Shown here: positions 18,449 to 26,625 of the stretch, in pieces
How positions within the stretch are numbered: the first letter of the stretch is position 1
Layout: every line of letters begins with the position of its first letter
Program-made: the position numbers and the translations under genes
Origin: Escherichia phage JLK-2012
Sequence record: NC_049942.1
DNA length: 57,198 bases
Direction: 5' to 3' (one strand)
Notes under the pieces: model-generated
The model's input: the letters and a program-made list of their open reading frames with translations, nothing else
Database searches by the model: none
Told to the model about the DNA's origin: nothing

Positions 18449-18538
18449 TTGACGCGATGATTTATTCGGGGCTATATTCCTCACGCGCCAGCAAAATCTG
18501 GCGTCGGGATTAGCACCCCGGATATCGAAACGGTGCAT

Positions 18539-18560
18539 AACCGCGCTGGCGGTTTTTTTA
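18539..18560 (+). terminator. Rho-independent terminator after ninE
   Basis: Hairpin AACCGC-GCTG-GCGGTT followed by TTTTTTT. Confidence 0.6.
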
Positions 18561-18723
18561 TGCGCTAAGCACAGTCACATTCGCGATTTATGGCGGGCTG
18601 TGTGGGGGAGCCGAAAGGCTCGCCGGATGTTTCGACCGGTAGTGCTAACCCCGCACAGTTCGCCACCACGATGATTAGCACCTGACGGTGGCGAGGTAAA
18701 AATTATCGAAACGCGAGGTCATT

Positions 18724-19594: not shown

Positions 19595-19768
19595 ATGCAA
19601 GATACACTTTTCACTGAGCGCAAAAATATCAAACTCAACCTTCGCCTTCCATCACGGCTGAATGAAGACCTTCGCCGCCTGGCGGAAATGGACTGTATAT
19701 CTCTGAACTCTGCAATTGTTCGTTTGCTGGCAAAAGGTGTTAGGGAAGAGGTGGCGAATGGTCGCTAA
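19595..19768 (+). CDS. Arc-like ribbon-helix-helix repressor (57 aa)
   Basis: MQDTLFTERKNIKLNLRLPSRLNEDLRRLAEMDCISLNSAIVRLLAKGVREEVANGR; AAGGAG Shine-Dalgarno; immediately precedes the ant-like gene. Not in the supplied track. Confidence 0.6.
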   Translation: MQDTLFTERKNIKLNLRLPSRLNEDLRRLAEMDCISLNSAIVRLLAKGVREEVANGR

Positions 19769-20762
19769 AAACAGCGAAGCCTCAATGGCTGCAACCATTG
19801 AGGCTTCTAAATTACCAGTTAACCACGAGAAAACTGATATGACTAGTTTAGCAATTGCAGATCGCACAATCAATGTTCCATTCCACGGAACAAATCTCTT
19901 TTTGGTTGGAATTAACAATGAGCCTTATGTTCCTATGAAGCCTGTTGTTGAAGGTATGGGGATGGTTTGGGCTGCTCAATTTGTTAAGTTAAAACAGAGG
20001 TTTGTCAAAGGTATTTCGGAAATCGAAATACCTTCTGCTGGCGGTAAACAGTTAATGACATGTCTTGCCTTTCGTAAATTTGCGGCTTGGCTTTCAAGCA
20101 TTCAACCAAACAAAGTCCGCCCTGAAATCCGCGACAAGGTAATCCAGTATCAGGAAGAGTGTGACGATGTGCTCTACGAGTACTGGACTAAAGGCCATGT
20201 GATTAACCCGCGCAAAGCTAAAAAGGCATTGCCGGGGAAAATCACCACTGAACAGCAGGAAGCCATTAAACAACTCGTCATGAGTCGCGGTCAGTCTCTG
20301 CCAAAAGAAAAACAGACGAAGGCGATGATCACCATGTGGTCGTCACTGAAATCTCATTTTGGGTGTTCATACAAAGAAATCAGCGAGGAGCAGTTTACCG
20401 AAGCTCTGTCACTTGCTGCTCGCGTTCCGCTTGAAGGAGAGTTAATCGGCAAACAAGAGAAGAAGCTCAACGGGCTTTCCGCAAAAGAAACAGACAGCCT
20501 TGTATGGCTGTGGGATTATGCTAACCGCTCACAGGCATTATTCCGCGAATTGTATCCAGCGCTAAAGCAAATTCAATCGAACTATTCCGGCAGATGTTAC
20601 GACTACGGTCATGAGTTCTCGTATGTTATTGGAATGGCGAGAGACGTTTTAATCAATCACACACGAGATGTTGATATTAATGAGCCAGACGGACCAACGA
20701 ATCTTTCCGCATGGGTAAGGCTTAAGAACAAAGAATTACCTCCTTCACTACATCGCTACTGA
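19758..20762 (+). CDS. ant: Antirepressor (Ant-like)
   Basis: Follows the arc-like gene as in P22 immI; N-terminal domain (INVPFHGTNLFLVGINNEPYVPMKPVVEGMGMVW) resembles antirepressor N-terminal domains; start chosen at ATG with GAGGTG Shine-Dalgarno. Confidence 0.6.
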   Translation: MVAKNSEASMAATIEASKLPVNHEKTDMTSLAIADRTINVPFHGTNLFLVGINNEPYVPMKPVVEGMGMVWAAQFVKLKQRFVKGISEIEIPSAGGKQLMTCLAFRKFAAWLSSIQPNKVRPEIRDKVIQYQEECDDVLYEYWTKGHVINPRKAKKALPGKITTEQQEAIKQLVMSRGQSLPKEKQTKAMITMWSSLKSHFGCSYKEISEEQFTEALSLAARVPLEGELIGKQEKKLNGLSAKETDSLVWLWDYANRSQALFRELYPALKQIQSNYSGRCYDYGHEFSYVIGMARDVLINHTRDVDINEPDGPTNLSAWVRLKNKELPPSLHRY

Positions 20763-20780
20763 CAATTGACAACTTAACAA

Positions 20781-20806
20781 ACCCAGCTTCGGCTGGGTTT
20801 TTTATT
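20781..20806 (+). terminator. Rho-independent terminator after ant
   Basis: Hairpin CCCAGC-TTCG-GCTGGG followed by TTTTTTATT. Confidence 0.7.
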
Positions 20807-20830
20807 GGTGAATTTTCAATATGAGAGGAC

Positions 20831-21559
20831 ATGACAATGAACGAGCTGATAAATAGCAACGTCATCAAAATGACCAGCATTGAAATCTCTGAGCTTACAG
20901 GTAAGCGTCATGACAATGTGAAACGTACTATCGAAATGCTGGCTAAAAATGGTGTTATCCGACATCCTCAAATTGAGGATTGTGGAAGAATCAATGGGTT
21001 AGGCTTAAATCAAAGTTTTCGTGTGTATGTATTCGAAGGCGAACAAGGTAAGCGAGACAGCATTATTGTCGTCGCTCAGTTGTCGCCGGAATTCACCGCT
21101 CGCCTTGTTGACCGCTGGCGAGAACTCGAAGGGGCAACCGCGAAAATACCACAAACCTTTTCTGAGGCATTGCGCCTTGCGGCCGACCTTGAAGACCAGA
21201 AGGCTGAACTGGAGAAACAGCTTGCTCTCGCAGCACCTAAAGTTGAGTTTGCCGATCGCGTTGGCGAGTCCAGCGGAATTTTGATTGGAAACTTTGCAAA
21301 GGTTGTTGGTATTGGTCCAAACAAACTGTTTGCGTGGATGCGCGATCACAAAATCCTTATTGCTTCAGGCTCCCGGCGCAATGTGCCAATGCAGGAATAT
21401 ATGGATCGTGGCTATTTCACAGTGAAAGAAACAGCGGTCAACACAAATCACGGAATACAGATATCGTTCACCACAAAAATCACCGGGTGTGGTCAACAGT
21501 GGCTGACAAGAAAGCTGCTAGATAACGGAATGCTTAAAGTAACAGGGGAGGCTGCTTAA
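20831..21559 (+). CDS. Rha-family regulator / antirepressor with AntA/KilAC-type C-terminal domain
   Basis: 242 aa; N-terminus ([32 protein letters not shown]) typical of phage Rha proteins. Confidence 0.65.
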
Positions 21560-23311: not shown

Positions 23312-23366
23312 AACGTGTTGACATCATTGAGCAAATGAGCAACACTATTGGCATAAGCTGCCGTTA

Positions 23367-23400
23367 GTGACTCTTAAGTTGCAACGGTGGCTTTTTTATT
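23367..23400 (+). terminator. Candidate tR'-like terminator downstream of Q
   Basis: Stem CCGTT...AACGG followed by GGCTTTTTTATTTGGG; exact stem uncertain. Confidence 0.4.
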
Positions 23401-23401
23401 T

Positions 23402-23476
23402 GGGTCAGTCGTATAAAGGTCATTACGGAAGGCTGTTAACCTTCTTATCGTGGTTCGAGTCCACGCTGTCCCGCCA
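23402..23476 (+). tRNA. tRNA, anticodon loop CTGTTAA (anticodon GUU, Asn by my cloverleaf parse)
   Basis: Acceptor GGGTCAG/CTGTCCC (one U-U mismatch), anticodon stem GAAGG/CCTTC, T-arm CGTGG-TTCGAGT-CCACG, 3' G-CCA. Confidence 0.6.
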
Positions 23477-23481
23477 AACAT

Positions 23482-23557
23482 GCTGGTTTAGCTCCAATGG
23501 TAGAGCAACTGACTTGTAATCATCAGGTCGCCAGTTCGATTCCGGTAGCCGGCACCA
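23482..23557 (+). tRNA. tRNA-like gene with imperfect anticodon stem (loop CTTGTAA, anticodon UGU if functional)
   Basis: Canonical D-arm GCTC-CAATGGTA-GAGC and TTCGATT T-loop, acceptor GCTGGTT/AGCCGGC with G-U pairs, 3' A-CCA; anticodon stem pairs only 3 of 5. Confidence 0.45.
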
Positions 23558-23560
23558 TAT

Positions 23561-23635
23561 GCGGGTACCGTATAATGGCTATTACCTCAGCCTTCCAGGC
23601 TGATGATGCGGGTTCGATTCCCGCTACCCGCTCCA
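23561..23635 (+). tRNA. tRNA, anticodon loop CTTCCAG (anticodon UCC, Gly by my cloverleaf parse)
   Basis: Acceptor GCGGGTA/TACCCGC, anticodon stem TCAGC/GCTGA, T-arm GCGGG-TTCGATT-CCCGC, 3' T-CCA. Confidence 0.65.
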
Positions 23636-23647
23636 GATTTATTATCA

Positions 23648-23671
23648 GGCTCGCTTCGGCGGGCTTTTTTT
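23648..23671 (+). terminator. Rho-independent terminator after the tRNA cluster
   Basis: Hairpin GCTCGC-TTCG-GCGGGC followed by TTTTTTT. Confidence 0.7.
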
Positions 23672-23803
23672 GTATCTGCGCCACGCCCGGCGCATATCAA
23701 CCACAGAGCCTTTCGGGGGTGAGCTTACGGAGTGGTCAGTGTGACTTTCTCTGTGGGCAGATCGCTCCCGGGCGTTGGCTCACCCACCCAAAGGAACGTC
23801 ACG

Positions 23804-24235
23804 ATGTTTGGTATTTTTGGTAAAAAAGCCCGCCGAGCGGCAGTGGAAATTAAAAAGTTTGAGAAACGTGATCTGGCACAGGCGGTTATTAATGCTGCCT
23901 ATCTGGTGGCCTATGCAGATGGTGAATGTGAGGCTTCAGAGAAAGCGAAGATCGAGCAGGTCTTGCGTAACCAGCCTGCGTTGTCCGCGTTTACGTCAGA
24001 AATTAATGCGATTAGCGCAACCATTATCGGTCAGCTGGATACGAACTTTAAAACTGGTCGTCGAGCGGCGTTACGTGAGATCGAGGATGTGAAACACGAT
24101 ACGCGTGAAGCGGAAGACGTGCTGGATGTGGCGGTGGCCATTGCCGAAGCAGACGGCGAAATAGAGCCGGAAGAGCGCAAGGTGCTGGAAGAGATTGCCG
24201 GTGTTCTGGGCCTTCGTCTGGAGAATCATCTGTGA
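23804..24235 (+). CDS. TerB-like (tellurite-resistance TerB / DjlA-N fold) protein, 143 aa
   Basis: From internal ATG with AAGGAACG Shine-Dalgarno; helical repeats AAYLVAYADGECEASEKAKIEQVL and DVAVAIAEADGEIEPEERKVLEEIAGVLGL resemble TerB-family proteins (recalled). Confidence 0.5.
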   Translation: MFGIFGKKARRAAVEIKKFEKRDLAQAVINAAYLVAYADGECEASEKAKIEQVLRNQPALSAFTSEINAISATIIGQLDTNFKTGRRAALREIEDVKHDTREAEDVLDVAVAIAEADGEIEPEERKVLEEIAGVLGLRLENHL

Positions 24236-24243
24236 CGGTAAAA

Positions 24244-24396
24244 ATGCGTCTGGCTGTGGTTGCGCTCCTGCTGTTTCTGGTGGTGATGGTGGACTTCAGC
24301 AGTCGGATAATGTCAGTGCTGGCTGACGGTGTGCTGGTGGCGGGTGTGGTGGTTGTTGCTTTCCCGTTGCTGAAAAAGAAAGCATCAGGCGATTAG
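24244..24396 (+). CDS. Small hydrophobic membrane protein (50 aa)
   Basis: MRLAVVALLLFLVVMVDFSSRIMSVLADGVLVAGVVVVAFPLLKKKASGD; two predicted TM segments; follows the TerB-like gene. Not in the supplied track. Confidence 0.4.
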   Translation: MRLAVVALLLFLVVMVDFSSRIMSVLADGVLVAGVVVVAFPLLKKKASGD

Positions 24397-24771
24397 CAGG
24401 GTATCAGTTACCCGTTGAAATTTTTAAATACCTCACAATTCAGGCGGTTGACTGTTGTCTGGTTTGCGGGGAGTTTGTTAAAAGAAACTGGCATGGTGAA
24501 TCCCCCTATGCGGAGGGGCGATCAGCAACCAGGTATATGGGATAATCGCGGATTCAGGTGCTGATACTGAATTCACCGGGAGGCACCCGGCACCATGCTT
24601 TGCCACAAAAGTGTTGTTTCTGTTTTTCTCAAACTATCATCGTTATCCCTTTATTTCCGGCTGCGCATGGCGTGGCCTTTTTTTTACGACCAGCCACTGG
24701 CAGATGGCCATCCTGTAATTTGATTCCGGTTCCGGCTTTTTAACTCTGTTCCTGTACACGGGAGAAATTCG

Positions 24772-26625
24772 ATGTCGATTAAACATTATGATGTTGTCAG
24801 GGCGGCGTCGCCGTCAGACCTTGCGGAAAAGCTGACACATAAACTGAAAGAGGGCTGGCAGCCGTTTGGTAGTCCGGTGGCCATAACCCCTTATACCCTG
24901 ATGCAGGCGATTGCAGCAGAAGGTGATGTGGTGGTCAGTGGTGCAACTGAGCCGGAGTGGTACTACGTCATCGTATTGGCCGGGCAGTCCAATGCCATGG
25001 CTTACGGTGAAGGGCTTCCGCTGCCGGATTCATACGATGCTCCGGATCCGCGCATTAAACAGCTGGCGCGCCGCAGTACAGTGACGCCGGGCGGGGCTGC
25101 CTGCAGATATAACGATATTATTCCGGCCGACCACTGCCTGCATGATGTGCAGGATATGAGTACGCTGAATCATCCGAAGGCAGACCTGAGCAAAGGGCAG
25201 TATGGCTGTGTCGGCCAGGGCTTACATATTGCCAAAAAACTGCTTCCGTATATCCCGAATAACGCGGGGATCCTGCTGGTACCATGCTGTCGTGGTGGTT
25301 CGGCATTCACCCAGGGCGCGGAGGGGACATTCAGTGCGGACGCGGGGGCCAGCCAGGATTCGGCGCGCTGGGGTGTGGGTAAACCGTTATATCAGGACCT
25401 GATTGCGCGCACTAAAGCTGCATTACAGAAGAACCCGAAAAATGTGTTGCTGGCGGTGTGCTGGATGCAGGGAGAGTTTGACATGAGCGCCGCCACCTAC
25501 GCACAGCAACCTGCGCTGTTTACAGCCATGCTGAAGCAGTTTCGTGCTGACCTCACTGTGTTTAACGCGCAGTGTCATGGTGGCAGTGCTGTAAATGTGC
25601 CGTGGATTTGTGGTGACACGACGTATTACTGGAAAAACACCTACGGCACGCAGTACAACACCATTTACGGGGCGTACAAAAACAGGGAGAGTGAGGGCGT
25701 TTATTTTGTGCCCTTCATGACAGACGGTAACGGCGTCAATACCGCCACTAACGCACCGGCAGAAGATCCGGATATTCCGGCATCAGGATATTACGGCGCG
25801 GCATCGAGAACGAATGGAAACCAGGTATCATCAAACCGCCCGACACATTTCAGTTCATGGGCGCGCAGGAGCATTATTCCGGATCGTCTGGCAACTGCTA
25901 TTCTGAACGCAGCCGGGCGCACCTCAGCCTTCATCAGTGGTAAGGCGCCTGAAATCAAACCCTCGCCCGGCGGCAACACGCCATCGGGTCCGTCTGCAGA
26001 TACGTCCGTTCGCACAATCTCCCTGCTGCCGGCAGCCGGAGAGGCTGCTGCGCAGGGCTGGAGCATTAAGGATGGCGGAATTCAGTTGTCAGATGGTGTA
26101 TTTAAGATTGCCAAGCAGAGCAATAAAACCTGGTCCCTGACGCATCCGGTGGATGACGCAATTACCCTGCTGACACAGGGCGGCAGACTGACCTGTAAGT
26201 TCCGCCTGTCAGGCGCACTGACCAACAATCAGTTCGGGCTGGGGATTTATCTGTATACGGATGCTCCCGTTCCTGATGGTGTGGCGATGACGGGTACCGG
26301 TAATCCGTTCCTGATGTCGTACTTCACTCAGACCACTGACGGCAGAGTGAATCTGATGCATCACAGGAAAGCCGGAAACACGAAGCTGGGGGAGTTCGGC
26401 GATTACGGTAACGACTGGCAGACGCTGGAGCTGGTGTTCACCGCCGGCAGTGCCACGGTTACTCCGAAACTGAATGGAGTGGCTGGCCCGGCATTCCAGG
26501 TCATAAAAGACAGTCTGACACTGGGGCTGAATGCGCTGACGCTGACGGATGTTACAAAAAATGCAGCGTATGGCGTTGAGATAGAAAGTCTGGTGCTGGA
26601 GATAAATGCACCGGCATCATCATAA
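24772..26625 (+). CDS. nanS-p: NanS-p-like sialate O-acetylesterase (prophage YjhS homologue)
   Basis: 617 aa; N-terminal SASA/DUF303 esterase-like region ([11 protein letters not shown]); same position (between Q/tRNAs and holin) as nanS-p in Stx prophages as recalled. Confidence 0.75.

Follow-up and report, generated by a model that had tools for sequence, protein, structure and literature searches.

A tRNA-Asn-Thr-Gly array in the late-operon leader of a phage-21-like lambdoid prophage is probably recombinant within its tRNA-Thr gene

The 57,198-nucleotide stretch of Escherichia phage JLK-2012 analysed here (NC_049942.1; hereafter the window) most likely carries a late-expressed array of three tRNA genes in the late-operon leader of a phage-21-like lambdoid prophage beside mlrA, and the array appears to be recombinant within its middle gene, tRNA-Thr. 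This reading, which draws on analogy with phage 21, is given a probability of roughly 0.8. The array is a known kind of element and is ordinary apart from the middle gene. Indeed, RefSeq genomes of E. coli O55:H7 already annotate identical copies of the Asn, Thr and Gly genes, and both parental arrays have been described. What is new is the proposed intragenic recombinant origin of tRNA-Thr, together with a link, put forward as a testable lead, between its irregular anticodon stem and a recurrent allele whose changes agree with published determinants of nuclease resistance.

Table 1. Positions in the window of the array, of the putative late-operon signals around it and of gam.
Feature	Position	Strand	Remarks
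gam, RecBCD inhibitor, lambda-type Old trigger	6903..7319	-	Pfam Gam PF06064 E 1.1e-64
Q antiterminator gene, phage 21 type, 162 aa	22823..23311	+	Pfam Phage_antitermQ E 3.2e-24
Late promoter pR' (putative)	23318..23353	+	homology to phage 21
tR', terminator of the short pR' leader RNA	23357..23401	+	stem and T-run; ends one base before tRNA-Asn
tRNA-Asn(GUU)	23402..23476	+	75 nt, discriminator G73; ARAGORN, Rfam
tRNA-Thr(UGU), chimera	23482..23557	+	76 nt; Rfam, PGAP in identical genomes, no ARAGORN call
tRNA-Gly(UCC)	23561..23635	+	75 nt; ARAGORN, Rfam
Second intrinsic terminator, right after the array	23647..23676	+	8-bp GC-rich stem, T-run; terminator scan

An earlier note, made by folding the letters by hand, had placed three tRNA genes in this interval, and all three have been confirmed. 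Each matches Rfam RF00005, at 23402-23473 (55.3 bits, E 3e-9), 23482-23554 (49.0 bits, E 1.7e-7) and 23561-23632 (55.4 bits, E 2.9e-9), above the gathering score of 29 bits. ARAGORN calls the first and third genes as Asn-GTT and Gly-TCC, in agreement with the anticodons GUU and UCC that had been read by hand, and skips the middle one. PGAP annotates tRNA-Asn, tRNA-Thr and tRNA-Gly with the same boundaries in 7 complete E. coli genomes, which are 99.3-100% identical to the window over 23380-23680 (three of the seven are identical). When the genes were laid out pair by pair, CCA was found to be encoded in all three, and both Asn and Gly form a complete cloverleaf, with a 7-bp acceptor stem, a 5-bp anticodon stem, a 7-nt loop bearing U33 and a purine at 37 and a GTTCRA T loop, save for U13·U22 and, in the Asn acceptor stem, one U·U. 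The first and third genes had been said to share an unusual 3-bp D-stem: they do share it (GTAT/TTAC, with U13·U22), but it is not unusual, being the native D arm of host glyT. The middle gene has the canonical D arm, the loop CTTGTAA and the 3/5 anticodon-stem pairs that had been described for it, along with a T loop and two acceptor G·U pairs, and its anticodon is UGU, that of Thr. Thermodynamic folding of this gene gave a non-cloverleaf minimum-energy structure in RNAfold, a result that was discarded as uninformative because the cloverleaf is not recovered even for the Thr of vB_EcoS-683R6, which is identical to thrU.

The setting of the array closely resembles that in phage 21. The Q gene upstream, which PGAP names 'antiterminator Q family protein' in an identical genome, encodes a protein that is 161/162 identical to phage 21 Q. 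The positions of the pR' features were transferred by homology from the curated phage 21 record OL657228, which annotates a -35 element, two Q-binding elements, a -10 element, a start site, a pause element and tR', with tRNA-Asn beginning at the next base. On this basis the predicted -35 (TTGACA) lies at 23318-23323, the -10 region begins at 23341 and transcription would start near 23353; the Q-binding elements, ATTGAGCA and AATGAGCA, were read from the sequence at 23326-23341. From the region of the Q-binding elements to the Asn gene, 70/72 aligned positions match phage 21, the two differences being one substitution and a terminator T-run that is 1 nt shorter. The tR' stem is 9 bp long (23357-23365 paired with 23383-23391) and aligns with the phage 21 terminator annotated at the same stretch with PMID 1704887; it was overlooked by a simple terminator scan because its loop is longer than 8 nt. 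On the 3' side of the array are a TerB-family gene and a NanS-p-like esterase gene (DUF1737+SASA+DUF6645), followed by a holin/lysozyme/spanin cassette. The homology with phage 21 suggests that the tRNAs are part of the Q-dependent late transcript. By analogy with that phage, polymerase would reach them only after Q modification at pR' and readthrough of tR', and the three tRNAs would be made with the late transcript and presumably excised from it by host processing enzymes.

Deposited phages cover the left half of the array or the right half, and none covers both: Asn and Thr lie downstream of Q in Sf6, phage 21, BTP1, SPN9CC and many P22-like phages, and Thr and Gly lie downstream of Q in vB_EcoS-683R6, phi467, PhiR47_1 and others. 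The Asn(GUU)-Thr(UGU) pair has been described downstream of Q in SfI, Sf6, ST64T and phage 21 (PMC3636060). Host thrU and glyT were taken from the thrU-tyrU-glyT-thrT-tufB operon for comparison. Set against them, the Thr-Gly pair commonly carried by prophages proves to be a copy of the two genes that lacks tyrU: of 124 Thr copies in the survey, 69 do not differ from thrU at any position, and 51 of the Gly copies match glyT in full. Ile/Arg arrays are present in other E. coli prophages, some of them fused as Ile-Arg-Thr-Gly. The full Asn-Thr-Gly array is rare, being found in 13/5,426 complete E. coli genomes (mostly O55:H7), and its Thr junction also occurs in 18 IMG/VR contigs and in one species-representative genome, that of Escherichia albertii.

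The junction itself lies within tRNA-Thr. Positions 1-26 of the window gene match phage 21 Thr at 26/26 and host thrU at 19/26; for positions 27-76 the figures are 31/50 and 46/50, the four differences from thrU being G42U, U43C, A49G and U68C. The acceptor stems of both parents (phage 21 and thrU) are fully Watson-Crick, with covarying differences at 3:70, 5:68 and 6:67. In the hybrid, the phage 21 5' strand is paired with the thrU 3' strand, which accounts for the wobbles U3·G70 and U6·G67, and a CB9615-type variant has G5·U68 as well. The T stem has one extra G·U, and the D stem has four Watson-Crick pairs. We propose that homologous recombination inside tRNA-Thr joined an Asn-Thr array of the kind carried by phages 21, Sf6 and BTP1 to a Thr-Gly pair derived from thrU and glyT, with the crossover in the shared GGTAGAGCA at the end of the D arm. 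A relative, L130, has the same Thr junction with an intact anticodon stem (GT at 42-43) and a different Gly haplotype, and its resemblance to the window goes no further than the final base of Gly; the stop in homology at this point indicates that the array behaves as a mosaic recombination module. Either the crossover inside Thr happened more than once or further exchange came later. The sole Thr difference between the two triple-array lineages is U68C, which restores G5-C68; C68 may have arisen by point mutation or as a phage-21-type conversion patch, as G5-C68 would result from both. All of the ThrRS identity elements (G1-C72, C2-G71, G35 and U36, the set cited in PMC12445682) are present in the window gene. 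The middle gene would thus be a clean case of recombination within a tRNA gene serving as a mosaic joint between lambdoid phages, in which the covarying acceptor strands of the parents have been left mismatched by the joint.

The two flanking genes differ in how well they are preserved. The window Asn aligns with phage 21 Asn without differences and is invariant in 8/8 haplotypes of the triple array. It matches host tRNA-Asn at 48/78 aligned positions, with an arm of GAAGG/CCUUC where the host has GCGGA/UCCGU, and has a U4·U mismatch in the acceptor stem; the identity elements G73 and GUU are present, and the gene reads as clearly intact. The window Gly matches host glyT at 71/75 positions, the differences being a compensated pair (C6U/G66A), U8C and A38G. 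At positions 8 and 38 it thus has C and G for the U and A of host glyT, and A38G allows C32-G38 pairing; the Gly identity elements (U73, the first three pairs and C35/C36) are present. Sister Gly haplotypes have independently added G10A, G39U, a broken T-stem pair or other changes, and across haplotypes the Rfam score drops from 63-66 to 46-55 bits. As far as can be judged from its sequence, Gly is probably functional but blemished.

The anticodon-stem mismatches of the window Thr, A27·C43 and C28·U42, are caused by a double change that recurs elsewhere. Inheritance of TC at 42-43 from the phage 21 parent was considered and ruled out, as phage 21 has A42 A43; G42U/U43C would be a separate, older allele of the thrU-type copy. 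Exhaustive scans of IMG/VR (2.9 million viral contigs) found 30 loci in which position 42 is not G, with TC at 42-43 in 28 and CC in 2. The same scans found no locus with G42 and an altered position 43, and no pairing-restoring change at 27-28 in the YC alleles. In 124 Thr-Gly pairs, which were surveyed with an anchor outside the anticodon arm (the Thr-Gly joint), the only anticodon-stem substitutions are doubles at 42-43. Within IMG/VR, 15 Thr sequence variants carry the double, about 10 of the thrU type, among them a pure thrU body (L216 and L222), and the rest chimeric; together they span three array types, Thr-Gly, Ile-Arg-Thr-Gly and Asn-Thr-Gly. The 5,426 complete E. coli genomes hold approximately 1,040 extra thrU-like copies, of which approximately 30 (about 3%) have TC. 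No full-length TC allele was found in deposited phage genomes; it is documented only in prophages and viral contigs.

Codon usage offers an indication of what the array may do. ACA is used 12.9 times per 1000 codons in prophage ORFs versus 8.4 in host ORFs, and GGA 15.1 versus 7.7 times; Asn codons are barely biased (AAT fraction 0.49 in prophage ORFs versus 0.44 in host ORFs). These counts fit supplementation for Thr and Gly, not for Asn, and the same ACA bias has been reported in phage SfI (PMC3636060). The array probably sustains the decoding of AAY, ACA and GGA/GGG codons late, with two contributions: it would top up scarce tRNAs, and it would replace nuclease-sensitive host tRNAs once these had been destroyed by anticodon-stem nucleases.

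Whether the middle gene takes part in such decoding depends on how its irregular stem is read. One rival reading, to which we assign a little less than an even chance, is that this gene, and perhaps Gly too, is a decaying pseudogene in a semi-defective prophage, with Asn as the only working tRNA; recombination would have produced a poorly paired hybrid, the anticodon stem would then have lost two pairs, and the gene would be drifting. Consistent with decay, the window Thr has three G·U wobbles and two mismatches in addition to the native A52·C62, and Rfam scores fall stepwise from 73.8 bits for thrU-type Thr and 61.5 for the phage 21 type, through 60.8 and 58.8 for non-chimeric TC (L073) and CC (L041) genes and 58.6 for the chimeric Thr with GT (L130), to 49.0 for the window gene and 47.0 for the CB9615 variant, although the window gene is still 20 bits over the Rfam threshold. 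ARAGORN calls Thr genes that have one defect, whether the acceptor is chimeric and the anticodon stem intact (L130) or the stem carries TC and the acceptor is sound (L208, L210, L211, L222 and others), and is silent on the window, L001 and L002, which combine both defects; PGAP is silent on the T68 variant (six O55:H7-type genomes) and on a G24A variant. Decay is also in keeping with the differing changes at conserved or paired positions in the Gly haplotypes beside an invariant Asn, with the intact stem retained by about 97% of prophage thrU-type copies, and with the restriction of the full-length TC allele to sources other than deposited phage genomes. Relatives also have frameshifted structural genes. 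In the closest sequenced relative, USDA5905 (99.8% identical over window 20448-44971), bet and the portal gene are frameshifted and the tape measure gene contains a stop, disruptions which suggest that selection on the prophage lineage may be relaxed.

Set against decay is the non-random nature of the damage. The same adjacent double is seen each time, without single-step forms in 2.9 million contigs, and it is found in many sequence backgrounds as well as in all three array types; moreover, U68C, by which the Thr genes of the triple-array lineages differ, restores a pair, and every ThrRS identity element has been retained. The suggestion in the earlier note that the middle gene is decaying thus has evidence on both sides: the stem carries a specific recurrent double in place of scattered damage, while the acceptor stem of this recombinant gene is weakened. 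As a separate observation, PGAP leaves unannotated the Thr variants at L002 2604-2679 (E. coli O55:H7 CB9615; TC and T68) and at L209 1484-1559 (mouse strain M19; TC and G24A), the second of which ARAGORN does call, and through these omissions the prophage tRNA content of some RefSeq genomes is under-reported.

A less probable reading, put forward tentatively, is that the mismatched stem is an adaptation, and that a thrU copy with G42U/U43C resists anticodon-stem Toprim nucleases (P2 Old, and perhaps AriB of PARIS). On this reading, ACA codons would remain readable to a lambdoid phage that makes Gam once host thrU had been destroyed. The cuts made in thrU by P2 Old, which Gam triggers, follow C28 and C40, both inside paired CNG motifs, and phage tRNA-Thr(UGU) genes, including that of phage 21, rescue cells from it (PMC12445682). 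Phage tRNA-Thr has been shown to be resistant only when a CNG motif is altered and the 27:43 pair is also lost, neither of which suffices alone (PMC12445682, 2025). The cleavage site of PARIS AriB in host tRNA-Lys(UUU), Thr(UGU) and Asn(GUU) falls between positions 40 and 41, beside a UAAU motif, and T5 tRNA-Lys evades the nuclease via changes at 39 and 41 (PMC12409363). In the window Thr, G42U turns the 3' CAG to CAU and unpairs C28, and U43C abolishes the 27:43 pair, so that both published determinants of Old resistance, an altered CNG motif and a shortened stem, are present in this allele, with the 5' CUG kept. The finding of doubles only, with neither singles nor compensated forms, is what a two-factor requirement would predict, and the recurrence of the allele in Thr-Gly, Ile-Arg-Thr-Gly and Asn-Thr-Gly arrays, together with a prophage gene for Gam, points in the same direction. 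As for the neighbouring Asn, neither CNG motif of host Asn is found in it, and it carries C39/U41 in place of the host U39/C41; changes at these two positions confer resistance to AriB on T5 tRNA-Lys.

Other observations count against adaptation. The anticodon stem has 3 bp, versus 4 bp in the resistant tRNAs that have been tested, and might fail in translation; the 5' CUG motif and the AriB site (U36-A-A-U-C|A41) are unaltered; the allele is rare among extra thrU copies and absent from deposited phage genomes; the neighbouring Gly is altered at conserved positions (U8C and A38G); and the double could be a single old mutational event that was spread by recombination. A literature search found no known defence nuclease specific for tRNA-Gly(UCC). 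The toxSAS FaRel2 targets tRNA-Gly and tRNA-Thr through acceptor pairs 1, 2, 4 and 5, a precedent of little weight as it comes from an unrelated host. An escape function of the window allele is plausible, given the matches to the Old determinants in Thr, the Gam gene and the changes at AriB positions in Asn. The fuller proposal, that G42U/U43C is a minimal natural escape allele shuffled among arrays by intra-tRNA recombination and that the array is a recombinant counter-defence cassette rather than a codon-usage aid with one failing gene, is one we regard as rather unlikely. Were the allele functional, it would provide a two-nucleotide natural test of the Old-resistance model in temperate phages and would argue against dismissing low-scoring prophage tRNAs as pseudogenes.

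The reading that a Stx-phage cluster of the ileZ-argN-argO type was misread through hand folding, to which we give next to no credence, has in its favour only the position of the array (after Q and before the NanS-p-like esterase and lysis genes) and the occurrence of Ile/Arg arrays in related prophages, and it is refuted by the Asn-GTT, Thr-TGT and Gly-TCC calls on which ARAGORN (for Asn and Gly), Rfam and PGAP agree, ARAGORN having found no Ile or Arg tRNA anywhere in the window. The expectation in the earlier note that the set might differ from Ile/Arg was borne out: the Q gene and late promoter are of the phage 21 type, whose known companions are Asn and Thr.

Several further features of the prophage were recorded. 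The array was considered as an integration site and rejected in this role, since it lies in the interior, away from the integrase and the mlrA junction at the left end; window 1-2824 aligns with mlrA and the adjacent integrase in USDA5905, and this end presumably corresponds to yehV, the site that the Stx1 prophage of O157:H7 uses. A lambda cIII thermoregulator element (7505-7563, minus strand, 84.2 bits) lies beside kil/cIII and an exo-bet-gam block that we take to be near-identical to that of lambda. An IS3-family insertion sequence occupies 8213-9521 on the minus strand (orfA 9141-9467, orfB 8254-9141) and contains an ALIL frameshift pseudoknot (9070-9186, 120.9 bits); this segment of approximately 1.3 kb is without a counterpart in the USDA5905 prophage. 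Matches to isrK (76.6 bits), C4 antisense RNA (75.1 bits) and the a1/b1 target (50.6 bits) lie together at 18472-18670 on the plus strand, upstream of ORFs for Ant and KilAC antirepressors (19716-21559) in the nin region; the cluster resembles an immI control module of the P1/P7 kind, here set in a lambdoid prophage. Where Stx phages have their stx genes (23804-26625, plus strand), the window has a TerB-family gene, a DUF3927 gene and the NanS-p-like esterase gene, with a match to the STnc100 sRNA at 24462-24634 (107 bits).

Two observations were also made on tRNA genes outside the window. In related Ile-Arg-Thr-Gly arrays, the Lys anticodon UUU is found on two tRNA bodies (L161 3480-3634, minus strand; L204; L209 1405-1481), one being a thrU body with A26G/G35T and the other an argN-like body with TTT for TCT; L161 has both, adjacent to each other. 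The main target of PARIS and PrrC is tRNA-Lys(UUU), and the UUU-switched tRNAs may be decoys or replacements, or may equally be mutational noise. The jumbo lytic Escherichia phage BF17 (Asteriusvirus; L223 44-177) has two neighbouring tRNA-Thr(UGU) genes, of which one is identical to host thrU and the other has a divergent anticodon stem (AUCGC/GCGAU) without CUG/CAG motifs.

Comparison with known systems places the array between two families. With the phage 21-type Asn-Thr pair of phage 21, Sf6, SfI, BTP1 and SPN9CC it shares a Q21-type gene, the pR' and Q-binding elements, tR' and a position right after tR'; from phage 21 itself there are no differences in Asn, in the AACAT spacer or in the first 26 nt of Thr. 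Unlike the phage 21 array, its Thr is thrU-like from position 27 onwards and a third gene, Gly, has been added; on sequence, the array is best placed as a recombinant derivative and not as a plain member of the phage-21-type Asn-Thr arrays. With the Thr-Gly pair of vB_EcoS-683R6, phi467 and PhiR47_1 it has in common the last 50 nt of Thr, a TAT spacer and a Gly close to glyT, and the pair of strain TUM9757 is likewise followed by TerB and DUF3927 genes. In a typical Thr-Gly pair, the anticodon arm is identical to that of thrU and the acceptor stem is fully Watson-Crick, whereas in the window there is a foreign 5' third of Thr with G42U/U43C, A49G and U68C downstream of it, and a Gly with U8C and A38G. 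The Stx-phage cluster consists of tRNA-Ile (CAU-type) and two tRNA-Arg (UCU-type) downstream of Q; the window array occupies the same niche, between Q and the lysis cassette, and related arrays fuse Ile-Arg to Thr-Gly, but its anticodons and sequences are different and the window has no stx genes. Finally, the window Thr resembles tRNAThr6 and tRNAThr21, two phage tRNAs that resist the nuclease and counter P2 Old toxicity (PMC12445682), in that its anticodon is UGU, a CNG motif is altered and the anticodon stem is shortened; position 43 is changed as it is in tRNAThr6 (U43A), and the 5' third of the gene has the sequence of tRNAThr21. It differs from them in carrying G42U/U43C versus G30C/C40G/U43A and in the loss of two pairs versus one.
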